Part shown: one piece after another, positions 17,573 to 47,955 of the stretch
How positions within the stretch are numbered: the stretch's first letter is position 1
Layout of the letters: every line of letters starts with the position of its first letter
Assembly (NCBI GenBank): GCA_030390025.1
Contig: CM059431.1
Span: forward strand, 114,020,001-114,084,000
Length of the DNA stretch: 64,000 nt
Source: Squalus acanthias
Taxonomy: Eukaryota
Reading direction: 5' to 3'
Notes under the pieces: generated by a model
Databases searched by the model: none
What the model saw: the letters and a program-made list of their open reading frames with translations, nothing else
What the model was told of the DNA's origin: nothing
Position numbers and translations under genes: made by a program

Positions 17573-19100
17573 TTAGAAATCCTTTTTTGAAGATTTAGAT
17601 GGACTGGATAAATCTTCACCATAACTCTGTGGTTTTCTTTTACTAGTCTGGCATCTGTTGGTTGCTTCCAGCATTTTTTCATTTTCAGGCATTAAACAGC
17701 TGTTCCACAAAGATGCTTTCTTATGCTGCAGGCTAGATAATTCAGAAGATACTGAGAGAAAAGGGGAACTAAAACTACTTTGGAAAGATGTTTTCTCTTC
17801 TGAAGTCAAAGATTCTTCTTTTATGTCTAAAGCAACTGGAGGCACTATGGGCAACGAAACCACACTTCGCCCATCATTATTTGCTATCTGATCTCTGGTA
17901 TCTGAAGCAGGGGCACACAGCTGGTTTTGTCTCATTTTCTGTTCTAATCTTTTTTCAGCTTCATTCAAAAGTTCAGTGCACTGCGCCAGATCTGATGTTA
18001 AAGACATGTCAAGGTCAGAGAGGTCTTCGGATATCAGAGAGCATTGAGGATTTCTTAGGTTCTCCGTTTCATCCAACATGAAGTCCAGCTCGGATATCTT
18101 TTCTCGGTAGGCTGCATCCATTGACGTCTCACTGGATGTTCTTGAACGTACATCGCCACATTCAGGAACACAAGGAACATCAGTAACTGGGCTACCTGTT
18201 AAATTTGGCATTTTGCCCTCCGATTTGGCCATGGGGTCTTCAGATTGAGAAGTCAGCAAGTTTTTTCTGAGAGTGCTTTTATGGGGACTTTCAGTAGGAA
18301 GAGGTTGACAAGCATTCCAAAACGTCAGGCTACTGGAAGTGAACTCTGCATTCTGCATACGATTGCAGTCAACATTTTGCTTTGATAAAATTTGCTCTTC
18401 AGAACATGCATTTCTCCAGCCAGCATCATCAAAACAAAGTTTTCTTAAGTGGGTCAACTTCTTTCCCGCATTTCTCTTTTTCATCAGGGGACTTGCTTCG
18501 TCATCTGTACTGTGAAGGTGGAGGCCACCAAGTGATGTGGATGGAGTACAAGGGCTAGGAAGTTCAAATTGTATCTCACTCTCATCTGCAGGTGCAGTGC
18601 AGCCCTCTTCCTTCTCATTAGTCTTCTGGAATAAAAACAAAGCATCATTCTCAACAGCAGCTGTCGTTAAAAGTCCATCATCAGCAGGGGCCCTGTTTTT
18701 TGGAGCTGGATCAGATATTGTTCCACTTAAAGTTTGCTGACAAGAGAAATTAAAACAGGTTGATTCAGCACCATCTACCTGGTTGACCAATGGCTGCTCG
18801 ATTTTACTGAGGCTTCTCCTCATGGCTATGATCCTGTTCTCCTTGGCGTTATCATGATGGTTCCATAGTTCTCCACAGCTTCCGTTTTCTCCAGTCTGCA
18901 GAGAAGCAGATGGTGATTCTGGGCAGAGTTTCCCACCTTCATTCTCTTTTTCTTCACTCCTTCCCTTCAGTTGTTCAATCTGGAACTCCATATCTTCTAT
19001 GTACTTGTCACTCCGTTCCAACGCCCTTTTTAGACGATTCATCTCACGTTCATATTGTTCAACCTTTGACTGAAGAGCAGCCACTGTGAACCTTCCAAAT
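17573..19100 (-). CDS. OBI1: OBI1 last coding exon 6 (long low-complexity C-terminus)
   Basis: TTGCAG| acceptor; (K)FGRFTVAALQSKVEQYEREMNRLKRALERSDKYIE... to TAA at 17573-17575; the six exons sum to 2181 nt in frame. Confidence 0.96.
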
Positions 19101-21559
19101 CTGCAACCATAGAGAAAGAATTTATAGAAACATAAATTGGTACAAAGTAGAAGAGTGGTTTTGTGAGCATCTAGTTCTGAGCTGATGTCCCTGACCAGAA
19201 CCTCCAGCTTAAAAGCAAAGTATATACTGGGTACTATGGTTTACAGGCTATTTAAAATCAGTTATATTATATCATGGAATAGTAGTAGTAATGACATCAA
19301 AACATAGCATCCTCACACTTTATTGTGATTACAAGATTTAGAAAAATAGGAGCTTTGATCAACTATATGAACTCAGACCATTTAACTGAGAAGGGTATAT
19401 ATTTGATTTTAAAAAACAATTAAATTCAGAGGACTGGGTGGCGTAGTCAAGTTAACAGTAAAATCTAGCATCTGCATTTGAATCTCCTAAAGATGCGTCT
19501 CTCTGCCAACCATACAACTCCCAAGTGATGCGAGTTTGGAAAGTTCCAGAAACAGTGCTCATCACGAGGCCAACCAATGCAATGATTATTTTTTTCACTT
19601 TAACATTGGGTAGTAAGGCTATTCTGGAGCATGTTTCCCTAATTACAGAACAAATAATAAATTAAGAACAACCTATAAGTAAAGCATTAAAAGTCTTGCA
19701 GCATAATTCAAGCTACTGGACTGACCATCGTTTTTTTTGAAGTTAAATCTGCATCTCAACTTTCCACTTAAATATTCACATTTTAGTCGCAGTGCTCTCT
19801 TTGCTTAGGATAATGGTCATTAATTGTGGGTTCCATCAGCAAACAATCACTGCTTTAAAATGTGGTTTATAAACCACACTTCATACTCCACTCCTAAAGT
19901 AGGACTCAAACCCGCACTAAGAGCACTCTAACTGATTGACATTGTTTCATTGTAAATTGATAAAAGCCTACTTTCCTAAGCGAAGGGATGTGAATGCCAC
20001 CCACAAAATGAGTTCCTTATTAGATACATTAGTGCATCTTTCCATTCCAAATTGTGCTTCCAAACAACTTGACCTGATAATGAAGAGTTGCTGGGAGATA
20101 ATTTTTAAAAACTAAAATGATTAAATTTAAACCACTCCTTCAGGATGTATGTCAAAACATCAGAATTCCCCATTAAAAACAAACCCCTCGTTACCTCAAA
20201 CATTTTGTAAAATGATTTTCATCCTTCAGGTCCCAGCTTGCCAAGTTCTGGGAAAACCTAAGCATATAGATATAAATGTCTTGATGATGTTTCAGATAGC
20301 CAGCTCTGGGTTCCTACTCTTGCATTTATATAAAGCACCACTGAGCCAATTCATTTTGGGCCAAAGCTAAACTGAAACTAACAAACCATTTTGCACTAAA
20401 CCCCCAAAATTAGATCCATGCAGTCCTGTAGGGATGGATGGGTGGAACTGTGGAAGATGCACATCATTCAAGAATGAAGACAACCCTACAAAGTGGGTAA
20501 TTATCTTTCCTCTTCATTCTGCATTGTTTATAAACTAAAGCGGCATACCATAGTAGTAAAGCTTTAGGACCGCAGCCTTGATGTAGGAGTCATTACATTA
20601 GCTCTCAGGAGTTATGTCAAAGGCACTGTCAAGTGCTGCAGCTAAATCTAGATAGTAATTGCTAGTAAATATGTGAGGATTGCTTCATTTGACAGCCAAT
20701 ATTTGCTATAAATTAAAACCCATTGGAGAGATGCAAAGAAGCAGCCCGAGAACAGGTGGACCAAGTGCAGGATGTTAGCAGTGCACGGACTCATCCATTT
20801 GGCTATCTACTCCTTTGTCACCGATTTGCCTTGGGTCCTTGTAACACAGGAAACAAATGCTCAAGACTGTCTAAATTGCTTTGTGAGACCTGGGGCTCTG
20901 CAGGTATTTACATAGTGTTTGGTTCTGGTTTGTCTGGTGGCAGACAGTGCAGCAGTTTCTTGTCCCAGATGAAACGAGGTAGTGCCTTCAAGTAAAAACC
21001 TCAGGTAAGCCAGTTTTTTGGAATGCCAAATAAAACACAGAATAGCTCACTCACCTTCGGAGCCAAAACAACACTAATAGTGCGGTTTTTCCAAATAAGT
21101 TCATACATTCAAAAGAGGTTTGAATAGTGGATATAGTAACTTGTGAAGAATGCAAGATTCCAATTGAAAACCAATTACGGCCTAACTAGTCATAATTGAC
21201 ATATAACTTGCATAATATGGAGATACTAATGAGTGCTCTCTTAATGATCGAAACATTAAACGGCCCTAAAAGACTGAAATAGCTGCAACATGAACCTAAA
21301 TAGAATAGGTTTTAAATTAAATGCTGGAGAGACTGCAGAATGCAGGAGGATATTATACGAGGTAGCTCTAACTAACTAGGAATACCAATGCACAAATGTT
21401 TCCCATTTTGTGTTATAAACTCTATTAGTAAATCACTCTATATGAACTAGGCAGAGACAGGGCACCCTGGTATCAGAGTTGTCACCCTTCAATAGCCAGG
21501 CTAATCAATTAGACTGCCTTCATGTCTGCACACTATATTTAACCTTATGTGAACTGCAG

Positions 21560-22680
21560 TTCCGAAGAAGTGATTCTGAATGCAGCCATGTTAGTCTGCA
21601 GCTCAATACACCATTGAGTACATCGGCCTAGACCTTTGCGACTGCAGTCCATAGGAATATGAATACGAGAAGCTATGTAAAACGTACCGCTTACAGTCTA
21701 CATGAAGGTTGTTGAAAGGAATCTACTCTTGGGCAGAGACCTCTAGAAAAAGTACATTGAGGATTTGGGCAACTCTAGCGCAAACACCTGCACATTTGGA
21801 GCTTTACTCTTTGAATTTGCCCTGGGGAATTCCTCATTACCTTCCTATTGCCCCTCAAGGGAACCCGGTTCTCAACCTCCTGTGGATAGGTAGGCAGATT
21901 CTAGAGCAAACCCATTGGTCACTGCTGGTTATGGGGTTGCATTCTGCACCACCATGGACAGGAGCATGGCTCTCGTTGCTGTCATGTCATGGAGGGTCTT
22001 GCTCATGAAGTCAAGTTGGTCATGTACTCTACTCTGTAGTTCCCTGGTGTATTCTCCAGGGAAGTAAGCCAGATTCGCTGCATTTTCCTCGAACCTTCCT
22101 AAATGGAGTCTGCGACGGTCTCAAAGGTTGTAACCCCAGTAAACATAGAGCACACAGTGATCATATCTGTGCAAGTGAAGAAACGTTACCCATTCTTCAG
22201 AGTGGAGAGCTTGGGTTATAGTCTGGAAAACTTCCCAGTGTCCCTTAAAGGGGTATTTGAGGTTTATTTGAATGATGCTCGAGGGAGTATATTCCAAAGG
22301 ATAATCAGTGTCAACCAGCATCAGTACAGTCCTGGACATTGCAAAGAACTCTGAACAGTGAGGTCCCTTTCTGAGAGGAGTCCCATATTACTGGAGCAAG
22401 CATTAACTCCTAGGATGGGGTAGGTGTAATCTGCCAGAATTCAAGTAGTCTTCATTACCAATGATCTCTTGATGCAAAATAAAGTCTCTGCATCGTGCAG
22501 CATGAATGGGTACTAGCCGGTGCATTTTCTGTCTCCGCATCATCTGACACTGGTGAGTTTCCGACATTAACTGAAGTTGTCAAATCTTCGGGATGTGGTG
22601 CTAGTTTTTCCTCAACACAGATCTCTGCTCATCAACATGCCACTTGGCATCTTCGGCTTATTGTACTTTTCCATTGTTCT
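21560..22680 (-). mobile_element. Possible ancient DIRS-like retroelement RT relic
   Basis: Minus ORF 22121-22339 (FKGHWEVFQTITQALHSEEWVTFLHL) weakly recalls the DIRS RT FKMET...GDW...LDL segment; boundaries uncertain. Confidence 0.25.
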
Positions 22681-22860
22681 GAATAATGCTGAAAACACGG
22701 TGTAGCTTTTCCTTCGAGATAGGAACAGGAGGAGGCCATTCAGCCCCTTGAGCCTTTTCCACCATTCAATTATGATGTGGAGATGCCGGTGTTGGACTGG
22801 GGTGGACAAATGTGAGAAGTCGTACAACACCAGGTTATAGTCCAACAGCTTTATCTGAAA

Positions 22861-22897
22861 TCACAAGCTTTCGGAGCACTGCTCCTTCGTCAGGTGA
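22861..22897 (-). ncRNA. Minimal hammerhead ribozyme motif (PLE-type), sense to the OBI1 pre-mRNA
   Basis: Minus strand reads TCAC-CTGACGA-A-GGAGC agt GCTCC-GAAA-GC-TT-GTGA. Confidence 0.75.
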
Positions 22898-23066
22898 AGT
22901 GAAGAGATGCATATAGGCACAGCATATATAGTCAGAGAACACTGCCAGATGATTACATGATTATCTCTCTGCCAAGGTGTGATAAAGGGCAGTTAGAAAG
23001 ATTAACTGTAATCATCTGGCAGTGTTCTCTGACTATATATGCTGTGCCTATATGCATCTCTTCACT

Positions 23067-23103
23067 TCACCTGATGAAGGAGCAGCACTCCGAAAGCTTG
23101 TGA
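23067..23103 (+). ncRNA. Minimal hammerhead ribozyme motif (PLE-type)
   Basis: TCAC-CTGATGA-A-GGAG cagca CTCC-GAAA-GC-TT-GTGA: core CUGAUGA and GAAA, stem II, stem I TCAC/GTGA, palindromic AAGCTT stem III. Confidence 0.75.
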
Positions 23104-25223
23104 TTTCAAATAAAGCTGTTGGACTATAACCTGGTGTTGTGAGACTTCTCACCATTCAATTAGATCACGGCTGATCTGTACCTCAACTCCATTTATCCAC
23201 CTTAGCTCCATATCCCTTGATACCCTTAACCTAACAAAGAACTAGCGATCGGTTTTGAAAGCTACAATTGTCTCAGCATCCACAGCCTTTTGAGAGAGAG
23301 AGAATTCCTGATTTCTACTACCCTTTGTGAAAATGTGCTTCCTGATTTCCCTCCTAAATGGCCTAACTCTAATTTTAAGATCACATCACTCGTCCTTGAT
23401 TCCTCCATCAGAGGAAATAGTTTTTCTGTATCTACCTTATCGAATCCTTTCAACATTTTAAAAAACCTCGATCAGATCACCCTCAACCTTCTATACTCAA
23501 GGCATCCTAGGCAAATTTGCACAATATTTAAAACCATTGGTAGATGCTGATGCAGACATGCTAACCAAACTATGAAGACATGTAATTTGTTTTGATGCAA
23601 GCAATGTATTGCATGGACCAGTCCCAAAGGGATACGTATGACCATAGCTCAGTTGGGGTGCACTCTCATTAAATTGTAACATTCCATGCCACTTGCATGC
23701 TAATTTTTATTGTTTTTGGCTGCTTTCATTATTTTTTATACAGCCATCTAAGTGTCACCATTCAGGCTAAAAGTTTAGCTTTTCTTTTGCAAGCTTATCC
23801 TGAAGAAGACAGCCTAGTACAATATTCATTAGCCAGTGATAACCAGTGTAGACAACTTAAGTCTCTTGGGAAACACAAAGACACAAGAACCACAGAGCAG
23901 GTCAGATAAATGAACAGAAAATCTGTCTAATCCAAGCCACGTCTTAAAGAGGATGTAGGCTTTATTCCAAACTTTTGACGAGAGATATGATGTGAAGAGC
24001 AAAGAACCTTCAGTCGGCAGAAAAGGAACTGGTGCAATGGGCAGGGCCTTTATACGACACAGCACAGCCAATTCTGCATAGTCATGACTATTTATACGTG
24101 TGTAGTCAGCACATGGTTCTTCCAGAATTTAGGCTATAATCCTAACGCGTGGAGGGTGCAGAACGTATGACAATTCCTTGGAATTGCTTCCTATGCTTCG
24201 ATTGCTGGTCCAGCAAATGCAGTGGGCTGGTGTGTCAGGCAACAACTGCAAAGAACATTGCAGAGCTCCCAGATATCAGAGGAATTAATGTGCGCACATA
24301 AAAACAACAGTTAAAAGTTTGCTCTTTGCGTGGACTGCCAATCCAGAATAGTTCTCTCTCAGCAGATGTGAGCACTCCAACTCAGGAGTTAATGGGCTAA
24401 TGCCCAGCCCAGTAGGGATGAGCTTTGCAAGTACAAAACGCTATGGATAGTAACTAGCTACAAAGTAGAAGGCACTTATCGCAATGATTTTATACACTTT
24501 AGGGCTGTGTTTATGTACCAAGATTAAAAGGGAAGATATTTAAAGCCACACAGCAAGGGGGATCAGGTAGCACACTATCATTTTATTCCTTCCAGCAAAT
24601 TTCAAATTCAGTCCAGTCTCATGGATGAAAAGCTTCCCTCTCCATTGGCTGCAAAGGTCCTGTGTGAAATAACTTGGGACAGTTTCAATCTAATTTCTAG
24701 GGATAGTTTCTATAGGTGGTAGGTCAACACCAAAAAGACCCACCCCCCCCTAATTGGACACTAATAATCTCACCGAGAGGGTGTGGGATCCTTCACCTTA
24801 ATGAGCCTAAAAATTTCCCAAAATAATTACACGTGTACGTTTCGGTAAAAAGACCAGTCAAGAGCGTAGACAGTAGACAGCTTGGATGAAGTAAACGTAA
24901 TGGTACAGATATTTGCTCTCCAGGAGCTCATACTGGGAATTCGGGTATGTCCTCCCCTAACTATCCATCCATCAATTGAATGGATGGAACATTATGGGAC
25001 GTGTAGTCTCGTTTCCCGATAAGCACGCCAAGTGAAGCTCCACACCGGGAGCGCAAATTTGTAAAATGGCTCCTTAAATTGTTATTTTTTTTTTAAAATA
25101 ATATGTCAACTAATGGTTTCTAGTAAAGCCAAAAAAGTAGTCAGCTGCAGCTTCCTCAACTGAATAAATTAAGCAACAGTCAGTCAGTCAGCAGGATAAC
25201 TGCAATGTGCACGACACCTGAAC

Positions 25224-25640
25224 TTTGAGAAAAATGAGAGGAGATCTCATTGAAACTTACAAGATTCTGAGGGGGATTGGCAGGGTAGATGCTGAGAGAT
25301 TGTTTCCCCCTGGCTGGAGTGTCTAGAACTAGGGGGCAGAGTCTCAGGACAAGGGGTCGGCCATTTAAGACTGAAGTGAGGAAGAATTTCTTCACTCAGA
25401 GGGTTGTGAATCTTTGGAATTCTCTGCCCCAGAGGGCTGTGGATGCTGAGTCTTTTTAGAGTATATTCAAGGCTGAGATAGATAGATTTTTGGACTCTAG
25501 GGGAATGAAGGGATATGGAGATCGGGAGGGAAAGTGGAGTTGCGGTCGATGATCAGCCATGATCTTATTGAATGGCGGAGCAGGCTCGAGGGGCCGTATG
25601 GCCTACTCCTGCTCTTACTTCTTATGCTCTTATGTTCTTT
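25224..25640 (+). mobile_element. CR1 3' fragment
   Basis: RGDLIETYKIL...FFTQRVVNLWNSLP plus a CR1 3' UTR with (cttatg)n tail. Confidence 0.9.
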
Positions 25641-26008
25641 ATGTAACTGCAGTTTTCAAACTATTTTGTCACTTTTGACTGCATTCTCAGTTACAGGTTT
25701 TGGTGGTCAAGGGAAAGGAGAGGGACCCCCAATAAATATGATGCACAAACATTTTGGGATCATTAGCAGAGTTATATTCAGAATTTAAACATTTTGAAGA
25801 TTACACATTTAATTCAATTTGCCAAGCCTACTTCCACACAAAGTAGTTCCATCCATGTTGAGCTGATTACCTCCATAACACCTTAAATTATATACTGTTT
25901 GCCATACTCAAATCAGGTTTAGCAAGTTAGTATAAAAAACGGGATTTTTTTTCTTCGCTGAGAAAATACCACAAGTTATTAAACCAAAATATTTTGGTTA
26001 GATATATT

Positions 26009-26607
26009 GGCCCAATTATGCTTGGGGTTTTAGCACATTGGAGCCGCTATCAGGGCGAGTAGGGTAGGAATTGGGTGGGAACCGTTTATGCCAAGTGTCT
26101 ACCCCCTTTTGGCTGCACCGGTGTTTCCGACAGGAGTGGATTGGGTGGTTCCTGCATCCAACCCCTTCGGTAGTGATCAGGGAAAGAGGCGTGACTGGTG
26201 GGATGATGCCATCTGGCAGAATTCCCACCAACTCCACTGCACACCAGCATGAAGCAGACATGTAGTTCTTTCCAGATGACGGGAGTGGGGACCACCAAGT
26301 TTGAAATGGCAGCTGATCATTTTACAACAGCCTACTGTAAGGAAAGCAGCTTCCTTGAAAAAGAGCCAGTTCTTTCATATACAAAGATTCTTTGGCGGGA
26401 CCCACAGGCACTTGGCCTCAGTGGCTGGCCTACACTACAATTTCCTCACACCCCACCTAGCAGATGTCCCAGCTGCACTGATATTGTGTGAGCTTTATGA
26501 AAAAAAACCATATCCTGGGAATTCTGATGGGTTTAGGAGTGCCTGGGGCCCGTGAGCATTAAGTCCTGGTTATGATAGCCCTGCAAGCCTCAAGGGAATT
26601 CAAAACC
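26009..26607. mobile_element. Possible old Harbinger-like MITE
   Basis: GC-rich island starting att|ggcccaatt and ending aattcaaaacc|att; TIR match is weak. Confidence 0.3.
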
Positions 26608-26823
26608 ATTATTTTGCAAGTAGGGAGTTAACTATTTAAACTCCATAATTTCCAACTTTCCTGTTTGAAGCCTTAACTTGTCATAAATAACACACTGAAT
26701 AGGTTTTCAAGATGACTCATGGTCCATCGCAGTCATCTTGCTCACAGTTTCCACAGGATTAGAGAAAGTAGATAAAGGTTATTGTAACTTGTCTTGCTCT
26801 TTTAACAAAGCAACCGTACATAC

Positions 26824-26912
26824 TTTTGTGGAGATCTGCTATCAACCTCGGCCTTCAGATGTAAATTCTCTCTTACAAGATCACCATTTTGAATACGAAG
26901 CTTTCGGTTTGC
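26824..26912 (-). CDS. OBI1: OBI1 coding exon 5
   Basis: CCTCAG| acceptor, |GTATGT donor; 89 nt; ANRKLRIQNGDLVRENLHLKAEVDSRSPQ plus a split K codon. Confidence 0.95.
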
Positions 26913-27757
26913 CTGAGGAAGAAAAAAAATGTCTGAAGGTTTCAAAGGTTATTACAGATGTTCAAGGGGCATATTAAAGCAGAACTTTTGTACTAAACGG
27001 TTCAATATCAAAATAAAATTACCAAGTTCTATACCAATGACATGCACACCTTTCCAAATGCTTTCAAGACTCATACCACAAGAGGCTCTGTGTCAGTAAC
27101 ACAGGGACTAGATGCACTTTTTCAGAGACAGACTCAAAATCACCATTTTAATTTGAATTAATTAGATTTTACAGATGAATATTTTACAGAAAGATGCAGA
27201 ATATATTTTTAATACTCTATTTGCAGCTGAGAGCCAGTAGCAAGTCATCAAGGGAATGCTCTAATGGTAAAATCATGTTTCTTGCACAACTAACTGATTT
27301 GTGAGCGGTACGCAATGACAATGCGCATGCATCAACAAAATTGCTCCTCGGCAGCTATTAGGAAGGGAGGAAAAGCATTAATTCAGGTTTCATGTCACAT
27401 TAGAGTGAAGTTTATGCCAAAAGGCAATCCCTGAAATGCAAATACAAGTTCCCCGACAAACAACCGCCTTCCTTCATATAAAGAGATGATACGTAGCAGG
27501 ATTCCTCAAAAGAAAATACGCGTTCCAGATCTTATTCTGAGGGCGTTTCAACTCTGGCTCAAATCTCAGCATTCCTTTTATGGACCAACAAAGGCCAGCT
27601 ACAAAACACAACTACAACGTGGCCCCCTTAGGATCGTCAGCCGTGCCAACATCTTGGGTGGATTCTCACCATTTCCACCTCCAGTTAGAAAGGAACTATG
27701 ATTAACATATTTAATCCATTTACTGATATCTTAAACATGTTTAACTTCTTTACTGTG

Positions 27758-28209
27758 TCAGCTGTGGCTCAGTGGGCAGTACACACGCCCGAGTCAGAAG
27801 GTTGTGGGCTCAAGTTCCACTCCAGGGACTCGAGCACATAAATCTAGGCCGACACTCCGGCGCAGTGCTGAGGGAGTGCTGCACTGTTGGAAGTGCTGTC
27901 TTTCAGATGAGACGTTAAGCCGAGGCCCCGTCTGCTCTCTCAGGTGGATGTAAAAGATCCCATGGCACTATATTCGAAGAAGAGCAGGGGAGTTATCCCC
28001 AGTGTCTTGGCCAATATATATCCCTCAATCAACATAACAAAAACAGTTTATCACATTGCTGTTTGTGGGAGCTTGCTGTGTGCAAATTGGCTGCCACGTT
28101 TCCCACATTACAACAGTGACTCCACTCCAAAAGTACTTCATTGGCTGTAAAGAACTTTGAGACATCCGGTGGTCGTGAAACGCGCTATAGAAATGCAAGT
28201 CTTTCTTTT
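27758..28209 (+). mobile_element. Deu-domain SINE (SacSINE1-like), full length
   Basis: tRNA-like head, Deu core gatgagacgttaagccgaggccccgtctg...aaagatcccatggcact, tail ...gcaagtctttcttt. Confidence 0.9.
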
Positions 28210-28864
28210 ACTGGGACGACATGAATTAGTTGAGAAAAGTGGGAGCCTGTCAAGAGTGAGAGCGCACAACTAAAATCAGCAAAAGAGTGACGGGTTCAGC
28301 ACCCAGGTAATTTCAACTGTTTCTATTTTAATGAGGTTATCCGGCAATATTTGGCACAGTAACTTCTTTCAGGCAGTGCCCTAAATAATAACCTCAACCA
28401 AGTAAAGAGGGTTACAAAATGGCACACACAAAAATCTGGAAGGAAAATAGAAGGAAGTTAAAGCCAATAATGACCCAAACACAACAGTCGTGTGAACTAG
28501 TGAGTCTTGCAAAAAGTTCAATGGAACTCAAAATTCAAAAATTGAATGCTTCAAATGCACAAAATGAAGCAGTCAGCAGTTGAGACATACTTCAGTTTTT
28601 CAATAAAAGTTGATGCAGTATTCAGTTTTCTTTAACAGAACCGGATGAAAGGACAGCACAATTTAGTCACTTTGAGGAAGCTCTAATGATTACTTCAGAA
28701 TAGAAGCTTATAGGATTGTGCAGTAGCAGTTTGCATGTTGTGAAGCACTATTAATCCTGGGTTTCCTGGAACTCAAACCTTGGCACCGAGGATTTTCCAC
28801 AACTTAAAACCATGATGCTATAAAGGAGAGAGGTCAGACTATTCACATTAGCAAAAAAAAAAAG

Positions 28865-29297
28865 ACGACGGAGGGGAGATTTTAAATTCACGAAGAGAAT
28901 CGATATAGAGTGGATGTGGAAAATTTCTGCAACCCAAAAGACAATCAGGGGAAAAGGATAAGCTACGGTAATTGTGATCTAAATACAACTTAAGTAACCT
29001 CTTCACTCATGGGAGTTACGAAGTTATGAGACACAGTGCCACCTGGCGCATTCAAAATTGACTCAGTTGAAGTATTCAAAAAGCAAATTAGTTTCTGGTT
29101 TTCAGTAAGTTTTACAGGGATACAAGCTAGGTGCTGAGGCAGCGCCAGGAAAAGAAAAAGATGAGAATGGGTTTGTGCAGTTACTAAATAAGGAACTAAC
29201 CAAGAGAGTGAATTAGACTAATCGGATAGCTCTTTCAGAGAGCTGGCACGGGCACAATGGGCCGAATGGCCTCCTTCTGTGCCGTATGTTTCTGTGA
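28865..29297 (+). mobile_element. Old CR1 3' fragments
   Basis: Degenerate gacggaggggagattt..., cttcactcat...; 3' UTR gggccgaatggcctccttctgtg. Confidence 0.55.
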
Positions 29298-29361
29298 TAA
29301 TATGATTAAATAGCCTCCATTTCTACCTCAGTAAAGGTTTATCAATGGTTTTTAATTATTT

Positions 29362-29924
29362 CAAATGTACTTAATTGGTTGTAAAGCACTTGGGACGTCC
29401 CGAGGTTGTGAAAGGCGCTATATAAACGCAAGTTCTTGCTTTCTTTCAGCCGTGGCTTACTTGGCAGCACCCTCGCCTCTGAGTCAGAAGGTTGTGGGTT
29501 CAAGTCCCACGCCAGAGACTTGAGCACAAAAATCTAGGCTGACACTCCAGTGCAGTGCTGAGGGAGCGCTGCACTGTCAGAGGTGCCATCTTTTGGATGA
29601 GACACTAAACTGAGGCCCCGTCTGCTCTCTCAGCTGGGCGTAAAAGATCCCATGGCACTATTTTGAAGAAGAGCGGGGGAGTTATCCCCGGTGTCCTGGC
29701 CAATATTTATCCCTCAATCAACGTAACAAAAACAGATTATCTGGCCACTATCACATTGCTGTTTGTGGGAGCTTGCTGTGCACAAATTGGCTGCCGCGTT
29801 TCTACATTACAACAGTGACTCCACTTAAAAAAAAAGTACTTCATTGGCTGTAAAGCGCTATGGGACGTCCGGTGGTCGTGAAAGGTGCTATATAAATGCA
29901 AGTCTTTCTTTTCTTTTTTCTTTC
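29362..29924 (+). mobile_element. Deu-domain SINE: tail fragment (29362-29445) fused head-to-tail to a full copy (29446-29924)
   Basis: Two tails (aaggcgctatataaa.gcaagt) and one head tcagccgtggc. Confidence 0.9.
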
Positions 29925-29991
29925 AAAGCAACTTCTACTGGAAGCTGTATTGCTCCCTCCCCTACTTTTTTCACCAAGAACAAATACATAC

Positions 29992-30243
29992 TTCTTTAAG
30001 TTTATCCAAATCAGCTTTTGTTTTCTCGTAAATCTCTGTAGCTGCTTTTAATTTGGCTCTCCATTCCGGCTGACTGATCAAATCAGGAGTGCTGTCCTGT
30101 CCAGTTGGGCTTTGCTTCCGGTTATCATCTTTGCTGGAAGACGACAACGCCACTGGATCAAAGACAGTTTTCAGCTGCGATTCCAGGCTCAGATTTTTGC
30201 CACGAAGATCTTCAATTTCTTTCTGCAAGGATTCAATCTCGTC
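29992..30243 (-). CDS. OBI1: OBI1 coding exon 4 (coiled coil)
   Basis: TTTAG| acceptor, |GTATGT donor; 252 nt; DEIESLQKEIEDLRGKNLSLESQLK...EIYEKTKADLDKLKE. Confidence 0.95.
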
Positions 30244-30594
30244 CTAAATATCAAAACACATTTAAGCACACAGAAATAATTATCAGGAAATTCTTCAGAA
30301 CAGACGTTCCACTTTCAGATACCCAGAGGCATCAACATTTCTGCATGGTATTTGGATGCCAAATAAGGTTACTTTGTCAAATAGAACAAAGAACGAGTTT
30401 GACACAGCCAAAGGCAACTGAACTGCACCATGATTAAATACATTTTAGTTAACAAGCAAACAAAATAAACACAAATGTTAGTGGTTAGAGACTATGGGTG
30501 GCTTTGTTGCATCATGTTCACCAACTCCAAAATTAATTATTCATTTCATGAAACACAATGAATTTTTCTTTAAAATTCGCACTATATTTAGCTA

Positions 30595-31020
30595 TCAGCC
30601 GTAGCTCAGTGGGTAGCACTCTCTTCTCCAAGTCAGAAGGTTGTGGGTTCGTGTCACACTCGAGAGACTTGAGCTCATAATCTAGGTTGACACTTCACTG
30701 CAGTACTGAAGGAGTTCTGTACCGTCGGATGTGCCATCTTTCGGATGACACAGTAAACCGAGGCCCCGTCTACCCTTTCTGGTGGACATAAAGCATCCCA
30801 CAACACTATTCAAAGGAGAGCAGGGGTGTTCTCCCCGGTGCCCTGGCCAATATTTATCCCTCAATCAACATCACTAAAACAGATTATCTGGTCATTATCA
30901 CATTGCTGTTTGTGGGAGCTTGCTGTGTGCAAATTGGTTGCCGCATTTCTTACATTACAACAGTGACTACACTACAAATGTACTTCAGTGGCTGCAAGCA
31001 CTTTGGGACAACCTGAGGTT
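30595..31020 (+). mobile_element. Deu-domain SINE (SacSINE1-like)
   Basis: Same family, head through most of the tail. Confidence 0.88.
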
Positions 31021-31754
31021 CTTTTGTTTATTTTTCTTTCTAGTTAGGCTCACCAGGTTGCCCCATTACCGTAAATCTCAATAATATGTTTTCCTGTATG
31101 ACTACTAAAGTGGAATAAAGTGTTACGGCCAAGAGTGCAAGCAAAATTGTGCCAAACTGGACTGGAACTATTTGAATAGACAGGATAGGTTGCAACTGAC
31201 CGCTTTCCACTAAACACATTTCTAACATGGTGCCTAAAAAGACATGAAAAAACATGAAAGACACTAGATGATTATAAATTATGGTTCTTGTACCGTTTAG
31301 GCCATGGTTATAAAAATGGTTATATAAAGTTCTGGAAAGCATCTATACTCACTAGGTTGTGGCAATTTTTAGAAAGCTATTCATATGGGAGAAGGTTAAT
31401 GCAGGCTGCTAAACAGTTGTTTACTTTCTTCCTGCTTCCCTTCCTCTTGGGGAAAAACAAGTAGGCAGTCAATGCCAGGGGGTGCAGTCCCGGTCTGAAG
31501 GGAATCAAAGTTTTACTCAAATAATTAAACAAAGCATATGTTGTTTAGGGCAGGAAAGCAGGGAGCTGATCATGTCTCGCATTTGATACCACCAGAGTAA
31601 TTCAGTGACGGCAAAACGTTTTACGACAACAATTTCAAATGCAGTACGACATGTCTCAAACAGATCTTAACTACCATAAACCCTTATATAATCTTACACT
31701 TGGGAACGGTTTTGATGCTAATTGCAGAAATTGTCAATTATTTCTGGTATATAA

Positions 31755-32060
31755 CGTCTCCTGGACGAGACGTTAAACCGAGGCCCCGTCTACTCTCTCC
31801 AGTGGATGTAAAAGATCCCATGGCACTATATCGAAGAAAAGCAGGGGAGTTCTCCCCAGTGTCCTGGCCAATATTTATCCCTCAATCAACATCACTGAAA
31901 CAGATTATCTGGTCATTATCACATTGCTGTTTGTGGGACCTTGCTGTGCGCAAATTGGCTGCGTTTCCTGCATTAAAACAGTGACTACACTCCAAAAATA
32001 CTTCATTGGCTGTAAAGTGCTTTGGGGCATCCGGTGGTTAAAGAAATGCTAGTTTTTTTT
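31755..32060 (+). mobile_element. 5'-truncated Deu-domain SINE
   Basis: Starts in the Deu core (gacgagacgttaaaccgaggccccg). Confidence 0.85.
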
Positions 32061-32338
32061 TATATGTCTGAGTTTGTAAATCATACACTACATACTTGCC
32101 GAGGAGTTCACCAAAGTAACAACATGCATCAACATAAAAAGAATATTAAACTGCATGACTGATAATGTAGTTAAAAATGTCTCAGGATACTTATTAATTG
32201 TTTAGCGAAGCCAAATCAAGCTTTTACTTATAATTTGAACCTCTGTTGTTTTCAAAGTATAGGGAAAGTGTTATCTGGAAAGTATATAAAAACAATGGTA
32301 AAGTGCAGTGTAGATTCAGTAGGTTGGGGGAATAGAAT

Positions 32339-35300
32339 TCTCCTCCAACAATGCCCACCTTGAAGAAGTTCTGCTCTTCTCTCCTACAGGATTTCCGCTT
32401 GTCTCTTTTACCTTGTTCATCTTCAGTGCTTTCTGTTTTCCTTCTCGCGTTTGATCAGGTATCTACCAAAACTCGCTTTCACAGCCACATCTCTTTCCTC
32501 AGCAACTGTCTCTGGCGCCGACTTATTCCATGTGGATTCCAACTGAAATTCCACCCTTTGTGTTTTGGATCCACCCAGGATTACAGGTATCTCCGAGATA
32601 TTCAGCATTCCTCGAACTACTGCTCTCGCCGCATCCGGAGATCCACGCTCAAATCCATGCGCCACCACGTGCACGCGCTCCACCTCTCTCTTCAGCAGCA
32701 CCGACTCACTATCTCAAAGCTGTCCTGGTCTGCAGTTCCATTTCATCCTTCACCTTATCCGGCACTTTAACAAAAAACTTTTTTTCTTCCTTTCAGGTGT
32801 CAAGGATCGCAAGCTTCAACAACTCTTGGACACCAACGCCCCTCCGGAATCATCATCTCCTTCACTCTCCTCTGACCCCATCCCTTCTTCCAATCTCACC
32901 CCCTGCGCCATGTTTTCACTATCCCCTCTGACCTTCCCCTCTCTGACCTTGAACGATCAGTCCTCAGCAAAGGCCTGAGCTTTATCCCCTTAGGCCCCCA
33001 CCTCTATGAATTTCGAGCTCAGCATGACACGGAGCTTTTTTTCCATCGCCTTCGTCTCTGTGCCCACTTCTTTGGCCAGGAGTCTTCCACCCACATAGCG
33101 GACCCTTTCTCCCATTTTCAGAATTCTCAGTCTAACTGGACCCCTCCCTCTGTCCTCTTACCCTCTCTAGATCTTTTCATTGCGAACTGCCGGCGTGACA
33201 TCGGCCGTCTCAATTTCTCTGTTCCCCTCACTCACTCCAACCTACCTCCCTCTGAACTTGCAGCACTCCGTTCTCTCAGATCCAACCCCAACATTGTCAT
33301 TAAACCTGCTGACAAGGGTGGCGCAGTTGTTGTTTGGCAAACCTACCTTGTGGAGGCTGAACGTCAACTCTCTGACACCTTCTCCTACCTCCCCCTGGAC
33401 CATGACCCCACTACTGAACATCAAGACTGTCACTGACCTCATCTCCTCTGGAGATCTTCCCTCCACGGCCACCAACCTCATAGTCCCCCAACCCCGCTTC
33501 TACCTCCTTCCCAAGATCCACAAACTGGACTGCCTGGTAGACCCATTGTTTCAGCCTGTTCTTGCCACACGGAACTGATTTCTTCCTATATCGACTCTAC
33601 TTTTTCTCTCCTTGTCCAGTCTCTTCCCACCTATATCCATCTTCAGACGCCCTCCGCCACTTTAACAGTTTCCTGGCTCCAACCATCTCCTTTTCACTAT
33701 GGACGTACAATCCCTCTACACCTCAATCTCCCACCAGGATGGCCTGAGGGTGCTCCGCTTCTTCCTTGAACAGAGGCCCAACCAGTCCCCATCCACCACC
33801 ACCCTCCTCCGCCTGGCTGAACTTGTTCTCACATTGAACAACTTCTCCTTTGACTCCACTCACTTCCTCCAAATAAATGGTGTTGCTATGGGAACCCACA
33901 TGGGTCCTAGCTATGCCTGCCTTTTCGTGGGATATGTGGAACATTCTTTGTTCCAGTCCTACTCAGGTCCCCTCCCTCACCTCTTTTCCAGTACATTGAT
34001 GACTGTATCGGTGCCGTTTCCTGCTCTCGCCCTGAACTAGAAAATTTCATTCACTTTGCTTCCAATTTCCAGCCTTTCCTCACCTTCACATGGTCCATCT
34101 CTGACTCTTCCCTTCACTTCCTCGACTTCTTTGTCTCCATTTCTGGGGATAGGCTATCGACAAACATCCACGAGAAGCCCACCGACTCCCACAGCTACCT
34201 GGACTATACTTCCTCCCACCCCGCTTCCTGTAAGGACTCTTCCATTCTCCCAGTTTCTCCGTCTCGGTCACATCTGTTCTGACGATGCCACCTTCCATAC
34301 TAGTGCTTCCGATATGTCTTCCTTTATCCTCTACCGTGGTTGACATGGTCCTCGACAGTGTCCGTTCCACTTCCCGCATTTCTGCTCTCACCCCTTCCCT
34401 TCCCCTCCCTCCCAGAACCACGATAGAGTTCCCCTTGTCCTCACCTTTCACCCACACCAGCCTCCACATTCAACGGGTCATCCTCTGCCATTTCCGCCAC
34501 CTCCAGCGTGATACCACCACCAAACGCATCTTCCCCTCCCCTTTCAGCATTCTGAAGGGACCGCTCCCTCTGCAGCACCCTGGTCCACTCCTCAATCACC
34601 CCCTCCTCTTCCCACGGCACCTTCCTGTGCAAGCGCAGGAGATGCAACACCTGCCCTTTCACCTGCTCCCTTCCCACTGTCCAGGGCCCCAAACACTCCT
34701 TCCAGGTGAAACAGCGATTTACTTGTACTTCTTGCAATTTAGTATACTGTATTAGCTGCTCACGATGTGGTCTCCTCTACATTGGGGAGACCAAAGGCAG
34801 ATTGGGTGACCGTTTTGCGGAACATCTCCGTTCAGTCCGTAAGCGTGACCGAGCTTCCGGTCGCCTGTCACTTTAATTCTTTGCTCCACTCCCACTCTGA
34901 CCTTGGCCTCTTACACTGTTCCAACGAAGCTTAACGTAAGCTCGAGGAACAGCACCTCATCTTTCGATTAGGCACTTTACAGCCTTCTGGACTCAACATC
35001 GAGTTCAACAATTTTAGACCATAACCTCGGCCCCTATTTTTTCCAGATGGCAGCAGTTGATGATTCTGCCATTCCCATTTACACCTCTTCTGGACTCATC
35101 TTTTGTTTCTTTACTTGTCCCATTACCATCTCCTTTTGCTTTGTACAATCATACCTTTTGTCATTTACTCACTCCTGCCTTCCACCCTATCACAGACCTT
35201 CCCTTTTGTTCTTCTCTCCCCTCCCCCCTTTCCCTGCCCCTGCACTCACTTAAAATCTATTACATCCAGTTCTGACGAAAAGTCATCGACCTGAAGCGTT

Positions 35301-35406
35301 AACTCTGTTTCTCTCTCCACAGATGCTGCCTGACCGGCTGAGTATTTCCAGCATTTTCTGTTTTTATTTCAGATTTCCAGCATTCGTAGTATTTTGCTTT
35401 TGTATT
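32339..35406 (+). mobile_element. Penelope-like element (RT + GIY-YIG endonuclease), frameshifted, with 3' pLTR
   Basis: RT motifs PRFYLLPKIHK, MDVQSLYTSI, GVAMGTHMGPSYACLF, YIDD; GIY-YIG ..YCISCSRCGLLYIGETK.RLGDRFAEH at about 34740-34830; 12-bp TSD GGGGAATAGAAT at 32327 and 35407. Confidence 0.92.
35268..35304 (+). ncRNA. Degenerate minimal hammerhead in the PLE pLTR
   Basis: AGTT-CTGACGA-A-aagtc atc gacct-GAAG-CG-TT-AACT; core GAAA changed to GAAG and a mismatch in stem II. Confidence 0.55.
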
Positions 35407-35754
35407 GGGGAATAGAATGAGTGGTTAAAGTAATAGAGACTTGAAAAGTCAGGGCTTTATCATTGGAGCCGAGAAGGTAAAGGAATGATCAGAGTCTTCA
35501 GCATTAGAATTTACTGCACAGAAACAGGCCAGTCGGCCCAACTGGATTATGTTCCACACGAGCCTCCTCCCACCCTACTTCATCAAACCCCATCAACATA
35601 TCCTGCTGTTCCTTTCTCCCTCATGTTAGAGTGAAAGGATTTCCATCCCTGAGCTCGTAGCATTACCAGATATTGTGCTTGTAAGGTCACTGTTCTTTTC
35701 ATAGGGTCTTTTGATCTTTTATGGAAGTGACTACTTCCAACTTCATCACAGTGT

Positions 35755-36325
35755 TCAAACATGCACTTGAAGTGCCGTAACCGACAGGGCTATGGACCAA
35801 GAGCTGGAAAGTGGGATTAGGCTGGATAGCTCTTTTTCGGCAAGCACAGACATGATGGGCCGAATGGCCTCCTTCTGTGCCGTAAATTTCTATGATTCTA
35901 TGATATGGAGTGAGGGCTTACTAATGGGAGTGGTCTTTGACACCAAGCATGGGAGAAATATCGGAGTCAAGCCCAAAAACACACCACCCTCCGCTGTGCC
36001 AGATGGGCAGTTTTAAACAGGTGGGAAGGATAACAAATCAAATAAAGAGTAATGATCGATTGTTTCCACTGATCAGCGAGACAGTAACAAGGTGAAGCTA
36101 ATGATTAAAGCTGACGTTAGAAAACATTTCTTTACGCAGAAGATGGATAGAATGTGAAATTCTATGCCACAAATCATCACTGAAGCAGAGTCCATGTTTT
36201 TTTATAAAAGGGTAAATAAATAGTTGCTGAAAAAGAGGAATATTAAAGGCTATGGGAGTGAGATTGAGAAAAACACTAGTGTAGACTAGATAGGCTAAGT
36301 GGTCTATTTCTGTGCCGTAATACTC
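35755..36325 (+). mobile_element. Two CR1 3' fragments
   Basis: gggccgaatggcctccttctgtgccgta tail ending about 35905; second degenerate fragment ttctttacgcaga...atgtgaaattctatgcca. Confidence 0.6.
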
Positions 36326-36469
36326 CAGAATTTGGAGATTTGGCCTTATTCTCAATTTCTGCGCCTTACTGTATCAACTAATACCAAACACAAGTACTAT
36401 ACGGAACAAAACTAAAATTACATGACGCCCAACATTATCTTCAATTACAGTTCTGAAAAATTATACAAA

Positions 36470-36810
36470 ACCATAGGGAAGGAGAGCTAGCGCGCAAGAG
36501 GACAGAAATAGCAAGAGCACAGATAGCGAGAGAGTGCGCATGCGAGAGCACAGGAGAGAGAACAAGAAAGCATATGTAAGAGAAAACAACAGCAATGGAG
36601 ACAGAAAGAGGAGATAGAACAGACAATGAGAGAGAAACAAAGAGCAATAGAGAGCAAGAAACAGAAAGAGGAAACAGAGAGAAAAAAAAGACAGCAGAAC
36701 AGAGTGAGAGAGAAAGAGCGAGAAAAAGTTTAAGAGAAGGAGAATCAGAGAAGACAAAGAGAGGAAGAGGACAAGGACAGCAACACCAAGACGAAAAACA
36801 TGAGAGATCA
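36470..36810. repeat. Purine-rich (GA) low-complexity tract
   Basis: Degenerate agag/acag/gaaa repeats; source of spurious ORFs. Confidence 0.8.
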
Positions 36811-38549
36811 TGCTCCAAATATAGCAGACACTTTTTGCAAGTGACACTTACTTATAGCACTTTCCCAGTCAACCCATTCACACTTTGTAAAGTAAAACTG
36901 CTACAGATCAGAACTGCGAGGTAGGGAATGCAGTGAGGAAAGCAGCTAGAAACTGCTGAGTAGTTAATATAAAACTAATTCTGAATAAACAGTCAGGAGA
37001 ACCCACTGAAAAAAATGTTGCTTTACAGTTTACATACTGAAATTTCTAATGCCTAAAATATGATTTTAAACAAATTAAAAATTACATATTGCATAATGAC
37101 AAAATTAAATTTACTCATGAAATTGTCACTGTGTCTTTTAATACCTTCAGTAATGATGTCCCTTCAAGGCCTCAGCTTGTCTCAAAAGCTTGGGCGTTGA
37201 CTGGATATTTGTCCCCCAGTTAACTTGAAGCAAGTTAGCACCTACATCCATGGTTTCGGAGTAAGTGCAGGATTCAGAAATTCCCAGGTGTCTCGAGTTA
37301 AAGTAGAAGGGTGTCTGCTCTCAGCCTTAAGAGCATTTGAGTTTCTATGCTTTTTTCAAAGGCTTCAAAACAAGTTGGTGACTTAATTCTCAAAGCTTTA
37401 TTTCAGGCAAGTTTCGCATTTAGGATATGGACAACTGCTCTATTAACAACTGCCTCGTTTCTATTAAGCTCGAAATGTTTACATCACATACACACATCCG
37501 TGATTAACAGCACCCTTTAGTTTCTTTTGATGACATTTAGAAAGCAAAACAAAGATTGTTTATTGAGAATGTATTTCTTTTTCTCAATGTAAAAATTAGA
37601 ACAGCCTTTCAGTTAGTTTTCCAAGGTGGTTTCAACCTAGCCAATAGATGAATTCGATAATTGGCACTCCTGATTGGCTGTTGTCCCCATCCTCTTCATT
37701 TTAGTTTTCAATTCAGTTGCAATTTTTGGAGCTTGAGTTTTTTTTTAAAAAAGGTATAAAAATTTGGAAACTGTAAAAGATGGACTTTTGCGCACAAGGA
37801 GGTTTTTGTTAATGGAAATACGTGTTTATTAAAGACTGTAAGTCAGCTAATACTCCAGTGTTTTGAAGTAAGAACCAGCTGAAGACAAGGAACATGGTTA
37901 GGATGGGGGGCGGGGGGTGGCCTGGCACAGCCCAAAAGGAGGCACAGACATGTTGTTGGGGAGGGGCGGGGGGGGGGGGGGGGGGGGGGGGAGGGTAAGG
38001 ATGACAGAGTTGAACAAGGTAACATTGTCAGGGAAAGGGGCAAGGCACTTGATGGTTCTAAAAGAGCCAAAGACAGTTCAGTCTTCATTCTCCTGGGCCC
38101 CTTCAAGGCTGCTAGACATTGCTGCCCCACCCCCCGATAATAGTAGAGCTCAGCAACCACCCCTCCCCAATACTGCCAAATCCTAGTCTCGTTCTACCCC
38201 CCACCCACCCCCCCCCGCACTGCCACTGGTTCCTTTTCCAGTGTTCGAAAATATTGTCTGATGCTAACAAATCAGTGCCACTGATGAATACTACTTGGCA
38301 GAACACAAGTATTGTGATCTCCAGCTCACCATGAGCAACGTCATGGGATATCACAGATATAGAACACACACGTGCAAAGCCAAGTAATGGAGAACTCTGT
38401 TGATTGCTTGCAATATTTCTCCACAAGTTAATTTTTCAAGGGATAGTGCTTTTTAAGCCATTTAAATCTTTCTTCACCTACTGCTTTCTTTATTCTTCCC
38501 CTATTCATGCCAATGCTGAAAAACTTAGGTTTAATAGTAAACAAGTTAC

Positions 38550-38641
38550 CTCATATTCTTTATGTAACAGCTCGAGCCTAGTTTTTCGAAGGTGTCGCTT
38601 GACTGATGGACTGTCACAATTTTCCGTTCCATCTGTTCCAC
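38550..38641 (-). CDS. OBI1: OBI1 coding exon 3
   Basis: TTCAG| acceptor, |GTAAC donor; 92 nt, phase-compatible; GGTDGTENCDSPSVKRHLRKTRLELLHKEYE. Confidence 0.95.
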
Positions 38642-39068
38642 CTGAATGGAAATTAAATAGTAATCAGTACTTGTGTCCCTACAATATTGTAAAATTTGAT
38701 TTAGAGTTCGTAATATTCTTTTTCCGACATATGCCCAAAGAAATTTAGGAATTCCAGATTCTGTTTTAGCAACCTGTCTCTACCAAGTCTGTGTTTAACG
38801 AGATCTGTAGGTATTCATTGCTACATTTACCTTATCTGTAACTGCACAAAGTATCAGGTCCAATATCTGAATGAAATCTGGTGGCGTTACAGCAAAATTT
38901 CAGAAATCTGACAGCAGCAGTCAAACTGTAACTTGAAACATTGCATCACAGACTTTCAATGGTAATTACTATGCTGAGGAGGCCATCAGAGTCCAGCAAA
39001 TATGTCTAGGTATGATAAAACCACTATATATGATGAACAGTAAACCAGCTTGTATTAAATGTTTATAC

Positions 39069-39875
39069 CAGTGCTGTCCAATGTTAGCTTCTAGCTATAT
39101 CTGGTTAATTTAGAATCTGGACGTGGTTAATTGAATTTTTGATTAGTAAATTAAAAAAATGAACAGACACCATCACTGGGTAGGTGATCTCAATATTTAT
39201 ATTTGCACGATGTATGCATATGTATTTTAACCATTTTGTGCCTTTGTTGGCAAGATGTAAAGCCGAGCGTCCAAGTGATTTTTGATCGTTGTGCGTACTT
39301 TACTTCCTTGGTTACTGCTTATTGATTATCTGCTAAAATGGTGTGTAACACGGGTGAAAACGCCAGATTTCAGCACCATGGAAACACCAGCAACATTGTA
39401 TGGAGACAGACCAATCGGAATTACTGCTCCAGGCCAGCAGAAGAAAGCAAGTCCAATCAATAACGAGCAGCTCCAGCACGACACGTCATGGAAAAGGGCA
39501 AACAGTTTCCAAACTGCGTTCTGGATGGAGAGCGGGGCAGGTCTGGTGCATCTCATTGCCGAGAATGTTGACTCGCACAATCACACTGATGAAGTCAGAG
39601 TGCGGCTCGCAACTGATGGACAAAAACCCAGAAGCTGCACTAAGATGTGCCGTGTCTGAGAAATCCATGCCAGGATTCAAACCTTTGGTGAAAGAGAAAG
39701 ACTGCCACGTTTTTGCTCTAAATGGCGGTAGCTGTTTAAATAAATACACACGCGTGAAATACATTTACCTTTATTGTGTGTGAGGCGTTTTCTACTAAAA
39801 TTAGTGCACGTGGTTAAAACGGCATTGCAGTAGCTACCCATGTGGCTAGTCAGCGATTTCTATTGGATAACACTG
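39069..39875. mobile_element. Non-autonomous hAT (Charlie-like) transposon with transposase C-terminal relic
   Basis: TIRs cagtgctgtccaat / attggataacactg; perfect 8-bp TSD GTTTATAC; relics LCESTFSAM (-) and MKSECGSQLMDKNPEAALRCAVS...PGFKPLVKEKDCH (+). Confidence 0.88.
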
Positions 39876-41138: not shown

Positions 41139-41754
41139 TCGGGGTTCTCAACCAGGGGTCTGAGAGAAGGTTTCAAGGCGTCCGCCAAAAATAACCAGAC
41201 GGTGTAGGTGCATGTTTATTACATGCTGAAAGCGCAGAAATTAACACGTTCCCTGGTTATGCAATACGCTCTCGCTTGACGCAAGGTGTAAGAGAGCTAT
41301 TTCAGCGGGAGCAAGATAAATGACAAAGAACAGGGCAAATCATTGTAAAGGCACATAATAAATACCAGATATGGATATTTTGGTGTGAATGCTCCGATGA
41401 ATACAGCACATCTTTTTCTGCAGCACTGAAAGTCCCATTTAGTACAACCTACTTATGCAAAGCTAGATTTTAGCAATGACATCAATGAAAACAAAGTACC
41501 AAGCCAGGATGAATACTGACCATGACATGCGCGTGTGCTCGTCAAAAATACCGCCACGTCGTGACAGAATTGTTGCTCAGCACAAGCAACAAGTTTCACA
41601 TTAAGTAAAACAAAAATAATAATAAATATACATGTTTAATTGTATTAACTAATTTTTATACAGAAAAAAACACTTGTGTCGTGTTACAGAAAGTCCGTGG
41701 AATTTTTGTAACACGGGAGGGGGACCTCAGAAGCAAAAAGGTTGAGAACCCCTG
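41139..41754. mobile_element. Non-autonomous hAT (Charlie/MER5-like) element
   Basis: TIRs ggggttctcaacc / ggttgagaacccctg; 8-bp TSD CTTTAAA(A/T). Confidence 0.82.
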
Positions 41755-47854: not shown

Positions 47855-47955
47855 AATACTTGCACCCATTTTAATGACAGCAACTGCTGAACTGTGGAAT
47901 GACTGAGCTGGAGTTTGCAGTGGTAATGAATAGTGGATCTCCTGTGGCATTGCAC

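Follow-up and report, generated by a model that had tools for sequence, protein, structure and literature searches.

Penelope-like elements (PLEs) supplied the closest described relatives of the insert analyzed here, and the comparisons with published systems refer to the available portions of the papers cited. In EN+ PLE insertions (Pen2a_Av, PMC3846280; Fig. 2 of PMC8557442) the arms are placed head-to-head by an inverted, 5'-truncated pLTR, a tail of 30-40 bp is found at one end, the short arm lacks about 37 nt at its 3' end, the pLTR carries TATA-like and TCACT Inr-like motifs, and a TSD bounds the insertion. The origin of inverted PLE ends is still termed undefined (PMC8557442). In Schistosoma, dual minimal hammerheads (min-HHRs) were described on opposite strands of truncated PLEs, 100-700 bp apart (Cervera and de la Pena 2014, PMC4209133), with a short helix I, an extra nucleotide between 9 and 10.1, a palindromic 15.2-16.2 and a helix II of 7-8 bp. 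Poseidon of Anolis carolinensis (PAc; Frangieh et al. 2024, PMC11167929) has a pLTR hammerhead, an AC-rich tail overlapping the ORF start and two 3' end positions which bound that tail. Its protein, a predicted dimer, cut and extended both strands in vitro, started reverse transcription at two internal sites bounding the tail, and did not depend on hammerhead cleavage (PMC11167929). Animal non-LTR retrozymes (10.64898/2026.07.22.740005) are non-coding, pLTR-derived and equipped with a type I hammerhead, and are built of head-to-tail tandem units. Opposite-strand hammerhead pairs (PMC4209133) and the combination of inverted pLTR, tail and TSD (PMC3846280, PMC8557442) were already published; a literature search conducted outside most subscription papers returned no paper that deals with the present shark family or with PLE twin priming.

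The insert lies in a stretch of 64,000 nucleotides of the Squalus acanthias genome (GCA_030390025.1, CM059431.1), called the window below. It shared with the Pen2a_Av-type insertions all the traits named above, and differed from them in that no ORF is left, both arms are below 240 nt and the TSD is 13 bp instead of 8-10; unlike in that comparison, the inverted form is the majority product in the S. acanthias genome. The two hammerhead motifs were about 170 bp apart and agreed with the Schistosoma min-HHRs in helix I, the extra nucleotide and the palindrome, whereas helix II measured only 4-5 bp. The parent element resembled PAc in its pLTR hammerhead, its AC-rich tail overlapping the ORF start and the two end positions of its family, but it possesses a CX2-5CxxC linker, and its ORF opens where the tail ends, roughly 120 nt past the hammerhead and not inside it. 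Compared with the animal retrozymes, which are similar in being non-coding, pLTR-derived and of hammerhead type I, the insert was one inverted pair without a fixed unit. Taken together, it is very probably the doubly 5'-truncated, head-to-head 3' end of an abundant Neptune-type PLE, likely formed in one event at this site and probably inert since.

Structure and parentage of the insert

The features of the locus were collected in Table 1. The insert occupied 377 bp (22773-23149) and was flanked by two copies of the 13-bp direct repeat CACCATTCAATTA with 100% identity; both flanks of this TSD continued one host repeat, and the final 3 nt of the right arm (CAC) doubled as the start of the right TSD copy. 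The inverted arms were 146 nt each (22812-22957 and 23007-23152), with 6 mismatches and 49 nt between them. The minimum free energy of the hairpin was -293 kcal/mol (z -33), which was equalled by none of 100 shuffles. In a search for the empty site among DNA contigs of four runs, the contigs with unique flank ended at 22738-22745, where the host repeat starts, and the joints listed were those of other repeat copies.

Table 1. Features of the insert and its host region (window coordinates; parent positions counted from the tail end as -1)
Feature	Position	Strand	Basis
OBI1 (RNF219), host gene with six coding exons, carrying the insert in intron 5	17576..43877	-	protein similarity
Older LINE 3' end, recipient of the insertion	22717..23501	.	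flank identity of 83% (54 nt) and 68% (207 nt) to the LINE copy at 47.9-51.0 kb of the window
Left TSD, 13 bp	22760..22772	+	direct repeat; among 66 head-to-head relatives, TSD-like repeats are most often 12-13 bp long
Tailed arm, 3' pLTR end of parent PLE, parent -1 to -184	22773..22957	-	alignment to parents
39-nt PLE tail, on one arm only; runs into the ORF start codon in intact parents	22773..22811	-	parent comparison; tails described in the available parts of PMC8557442, PMC3846280, PMC11167929
Candidate minimal type I hammerhead with a 4-bp stem I, a 5-bp stem II and palindromic AGCU replacing stem III; sense copy in OBI1 pre-mRNA	22861..22897	-	motif
Tail-less arm, parent -233 to -39, 96-97% identity to pLTRs of full-length L101 and L105	22958..23152	+	
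49-nt 'loop', part of the longer arm and native to the parent, within a natural imperfect inverted repeat	22958..23006	+	
Putative pLTR promoter, commonest end point of family copies: TATA-like box 23034-23040 and Inr-like TCACTTC 23062-23068, 30 nt apart	23034..23068	+	sequence; rotifer pLTR motifs in the available part of PMC3846280
Candidate minimal type I hammerhead with stems I and II of 4 bp each; cleavage predicted after 23099	23067..23103	+	motif
Right TSD; first 3 nt common to the arm end	23150..23162	+	direct repeat

The host gene was recognized by 88-90% identity to shark proteins across the last exon of OBI1, and the insert was located between exon 5 (about 26.8-26.9 kb) and exon 6 (19102-17576). 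The recipient LINE is presumably CR1-like, judging by its motifs. A different and internally more complex PLE insertion (L116, G000:C1:8.318 Mb) was found at the same position and in the same orientation in another copy of this host repeat, and its TSD was the identical 13 bp. TSD words also recurred elsewhere, TTCATAAATAGA in L079, L087 and L044, and GAGTATATTCAA in L008, L135 and L151. The shared words and L116 suggested preferred PLE target sites in CR1-like repeats. Additionally, the window contained another Penelope-like element, degraded and from a different family, in OBI1 intron 3 (32336-34876, with weak RVT_1 and GIY-YIG matches), further hammerhead-like motifs at 44545 (-) and 46311 (+), and two inverted LINE segments of 2.3 kb each with 97.9% identity (47954-50235 and 57035-59316).

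Relatives were searched for in the genome, and 40 of 2923 candidates were scored. Upstream of the 49-nt loop, longer copies ran on into the terminal part of a PLE-like ORF, so that the loop represents ordinary parent sequence of the longer arm. The parents were drawn from 12 regions selected for long open frames. In L101, a 920-codon open frame is preceded by an inverted partial pLTR and then a pLTR, and a tailed 3' pLTR follows it; the protein of its RT/GIY-YIG ORF comprised 891 aa, counted from the ATG at the tail end. The right arm of the insert including the loop was 96.9% and 95.9% identical to the two L101 pLTRs and 97.4% to those of L105, and in both loci the pLTRs flank 920-codon open frames. 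In the parent ORF the RVT_1 profile was above its cut-off (E 1e-8); the GIY-YIG profile reached 22.4 bits in L104 against a cut-off of 22.6 and was not detected in L101, and a VVY..CxxxC..YIG motif was readable in the parent sequence. The linker CHGNLCKTC of L101 has the form CX4CxxC and fits the CX2-5CxxC that precedes GIY-YIG in Neptune and Nematis and is absent from Penelope and Poseidon, according to the available text of PMC8557442. By this linker, which is shared with Nematis, the autonomous parent PLE appeared to be Neptune-like. A Poseidon label was also considered for the parent and was dropped on account of the CX4CxxC linker.

The hammerhead cores began at 23071 (+) and 22893 (-). 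Both would have a stem I of 4 bp and an extra A between A9 and stem II, the latter being 4 bp on the plus strand and 5 bp on the minus strand, both have AGCU where stem III would be, and the CUGANGA and GAAA core elements, helices I and II, the extra base after A9 and the palindromic 15.2-16.2 agreed with PLE minimal hammerheads as judged from sequence. In an Rfam search of the insert, no hammerhead family was returned at E<=10, and the hits were miRNA hairpin models below the gathering score. Because no Rfam model fits, the hammerhead call was based on the motif and on the min-HHR description in the available part of PMC4209133. A miRNA precursor reading was rejected, since sub-threshold scores of this kind are given by any long hairpin.

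Most of the initial annotation of this locus was borne out. It had reported a 13-bp TSD, inverted arms of about 146 bp around a loop of about 49 nt, an inverted pLTR of Penelope-like origin, a location in OBI1 intron 5 and a minimal hammerhead motif on each strand (23067-23103 and 22861-22897), and each of these agreed with our results; both arms proved to be 3' pLTR sequence of the parent, head-to-head. The fold-back form of the insert stood as well, with two corrections: its length was not 380 but 377 bp, and a one-sided tail of 39 nt (22773-22811) had gone unnamed. The loop is no unique spacer but parental sequence of the longer arm.

Abundance and geometry of family copies

A 35-nt hammerhead pattern gave 17,521 exact matches genome-wide, and the control pattern gave none. 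The first 100 matches on C1 corresponded to 84 loci, including one segmental-duplicate pair, and all of these were adopted as the sample. Head-to-head arrangement was assigned by a script rule to 66 of them (four with gaps above 40 nt being doubtful), with sizes from 137 bp to 2.3 kb, while no inverted partner was present in the remaining 18. The ends of the 66 head-to-head loci followed a one-tail rule, with one tailed and one tail-less end in 61, two short ends in 2, an odd end in 3, and two tails in none. Flanking repeats of at least 9 bp were detected in 57 of the 66 loci compared with 27 of 4290 mismatched flank pairs, with a mode of 12-13 bp. The window copy is likewise inverted and 5'-truncated, with a 39-nt tail at one end. 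The head-to-head form is the commonest product of the family. A 4.65-kb head-to-head insertion at G000:C1:167.52 Mb (L112), whose 2090-bp arms were 99.95% identical, is a very young, large version of the window layout.

The longer arm was not fixed. Among 84 distinct tail-plus-short pairs it was the tail-less arm in 45 (including the window copy), the tailed arm in 31 and neither in 8; for the 55 unselected pairs among them the same tally was 28, 19 and 8. For copies with a longer tail-less arm, a single tail-started cDNA that folded back is excluded. A hand tally of the 66 joins gave overlaps of 1-13 nt in 32, blunt joins in 10 and inserted letters in 24, and this mixture was unlike the prediction of an obligatory palindrome fold-back. 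The two arms of a locus had 57 variants in common, compared with a mean of 9.6 and a maximum of 22 in 1000 shuffles, and 181 differences were unshared.

Most family copies were hairpins of about 200 bp, with arms ending at -131 to -120 (window 23061-23072), at the Inr-like motif just ahead of the hammerhead; partner arms unselected for length ended at -131 to -113 in 38 of 66 cases. In parent coordinates the TATA-like box lies at -157 and the Inr-like TCACTTC at -129. From its position near these motifs, the cluster likely marks the RNA 5' end, and arms ending at -131 to -120 were likely produced by run-off there. The pair of motifs likely constitutes a pLTR promoter, and the same TATA-like and Inr-like motifs are reported for rotifer pLTRs in the available part of PMC3846280. 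The window copy extends beyond the cluster, which points to a longer transcript as its likely template. An A>G difference (sense, parent -82) was present at 22855 in the tailed arm only, as also in L002, L005 and L007; an editing imprint was considered and set aside, because none of 152 unselected arms carried the variant and the three loci had been picked by query likeness.

These geometries likely result from priming on both target strands. The GIY-YIG nuclease of the element would cut both strands 13 bp apart, and reverse transcription would be primed from each cut end, with starts at the end of the tail (-1) and about 37-39 nt further in. Both cDNAs would halt early, at -184 and -233, in the natural inverted repeat of the pLTR, after which the two truncated cDNAs would be joined and fill-in would create the TSD. 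The one-tail rule matches the two in vitro start sites which bound the tail on sense RNA (available part of PMC11167929), although the in vitro model was a Poseidon-clade element and thus of another clade than the window parent. The one-tail rule, the 12-13 bp TSDs and the free choice of the longer arm favour both-strand priming over fold-back. Against it stand the 18 of 84 loci without inverted partner, as well as the recurrence of some junctions.

Junction recurrence and alternative origins

The window junction had 1 exact copy in 3.7 Gb. With 1 mismatch, two more places were found (L044 and L045, at 51.4 and 51.8 Mb), both on C24 and 0.4 Mb apart, and their junction differed from that of the window by one base of CpG type. 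L045 carried the tail on the opposite arm compared with the window copy and had its own TSD, and the right arm of L044 was shortened; no private variants were common to the window copy and L044 or L045. Among 24 distinct top-scoring hairpins, 20 had a junction of their own and 4 had one in common, at a 5-nt microhomology. This most repeated of the tested junctions gave 39 exact matches, of which 17 were segmental duplicates of one locus and 22 were other loci, 16 of these with TSDs of 11-15 bp (tail left in 11, right in 5), and it spanned at least two subfamily backgrounds among the variants listed. The duplicates (L175-L186, L190, L191 and L206-L208; C26:40-44 Mb, C460, C3852 and others) were at least 17 copies of a single PLE stub that had been amplified within a multi-copy segment, and the shared-junction cluster on C26 was rejected as a family on account of this segmental duplication. 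Control junctions from three further long hairpins were all unique at 1 mismatch.

Local recurrence was also found. L081 (C1:3.43 Mb) and L085/L086 (C1:3.97-3.98 Mb), 0.53 Mb apart and with different TSDs, had a common junction with a 1-nt overlap, which was confined to these 3 places, together with a variant seen in 2 of 89 distinct contexts. On C482 (120-217 kb), three loci within 100 kb (L187-L189) shared the microhomology junction and included both tail geometries. The surrounding region (G000:C482:100-300 kb), which was chosen for its three copies, contained 10 exact motifs in 200 kb, where 0.94 would be expected, mostly with long arms.

The recurrences, with the one-base-different junctions on C24 and the reversed tail of L045, argue against one-off insertion throughout, and would suit a PLE protein that takes up hammerhead hairpins, perhaps as nascent nuclear RNA, and re-inserts whole units nearby, each with a fresh TSD and with either arm bearing the tail. 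The window copy would then be a flipped relative of the C24 pair, a reading which we regarded as unlikely. In its narrower form, whole hairpins are sometimes re-copied in trans and the window copy, in flipped form, either derives from the C24 pair or is its sister, within an incipient non-autonomous fold-back family; this was considered quite improbable. The rare variant shared by L081 and L085/L086, the short distance between L044 and L045 and the three C482 loci spoke for it. However, the window junction was unique at 0 mismatches, its near-matches lie on another chromosome and have no private variant in common with it, the 39-match junction comprised segmental duplicates and loci of several subfamily backgrounds joined at a 5-nt microhomology, the control junctions did not recur, and C482 has about ten times the average copy density in a region chosen for its three copies. 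If true, re-inserted hairpins would form a non-autonomous class that is new to the literature and spreads locally, and two-strand priming could be read out directly from them.

The same neighbouring junctions might be ascribed to ectopic gene conversion between hairpins, for example after cruciform breakage, by which the central junction would be imported and sharing would no longer mean transposition. The chromosomal proximity of sibling junctions would suit recombination more than retrotransposition, and the near-symmetric hairpin permits the flipped geometry; nevertheless the window copy has no same-junction neighbour, and the sibling variants fit both re-copying and conversion. Conversion was held to be very unlikely as the source of the window junction.

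Two-strand priming was also preferred to a retrozyme- or viroid-like unit that self-cleaves, circularizes and replicates as RNA, an extremely improbable reading in spite of the rod-like fold and the hammerhead motif on each strand, from which the initial annotation had drawn a retrozyme- or viroid-like architecture. Each strand has a single sense motif, which would be paired with its own antisense in one head-to-head pair, and the head-to-tail tandem that defines animal retrozymes in the available text of 10.64898/2026.07.22.740005 was not found in the insert, which is the one copy in the window. When the whole insert was folded on both strands, the core was predicted to be paired, with an unpaired probability of at most 0.015 at 13 of 14 core positions. 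Min-HHR monomers were inactive in vitro (available part of PMC4209133); for two motif copies, RNAcofold did not favour the stem III dimer, with an energy model that cannot gauge ribozyme activity. Among loci selected by a pattern that lies downstream of the ribozyme, 1 of 36 arms ended at the predicted cut, compared with 14 of 36 at -130 to -120, and of 30 pair spacings none had the length of about 22 that a double cut would give, 11 and 37 being the nearest. In a larger set 4 of 163 arms ended at the predicted cut (-92/-91), two of these at stem I microhomology. The copy ends bore no clear cleavage footprint, and cleavage may have contributed a small share of them. Both hammerheads are probably passengers, the pLTR motif having been copied twice. 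The accompanying suggestion of a long pre-mRNA duplex that masks the ribozyme gained support from the folding prediction: in the minus-strand OBI1 pre-mRNA, where the antisense arm is transcribed first, the insert would form a long duplex concealing the ribozyme core.

For rotifer PLEs, the available part of PMC3846280 proposes that the inverted arm arises through fold-back self-priming with an antisense template. Such an origin would agree with the 1-13 nt overlaps at 32 of 66 junctions and with a window junction in a natural inverted repeat, but it is scarcely credible given 10 blunt joins and 24 with inserted letters, a window junction overlap of 0 against L101 (2 nt if the source had the A variant), and a one-tail rule that matches the two in vitro starts on sense RNA.

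The initial annotation had left the choice between a one-off abortive PLE insertion and a non-autonomous family, to be decided by copies of the junction elsewhere in the genome. The single window junction at 0 mismatches was not accompanied by the many same-junction copies with different TSDs that a fixed-structure fold-back family would show. The abortive insertion was thereby upheld and the family was not, and rarity did not hold either, as this form is what the parent family most commonly produces.

Meaning for the PLE family of Squalus acanthias

The window insert is a real and ordinary case of two truncated PLE ends placed head-to-head, and probably not a self-replicating ribozyme RNA. 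As a single locus it is of little weight, being one among many thousands of similar stubs, and hairpins of this kind can pass for miRNA precursors. Neighbours with the same junction and different TSDs provide a cheap test of hairpin re-copying against conversion. The Squalus acanthias genome offers thousands of young, clean PLE products in which the formation of inverted ends can be studied.
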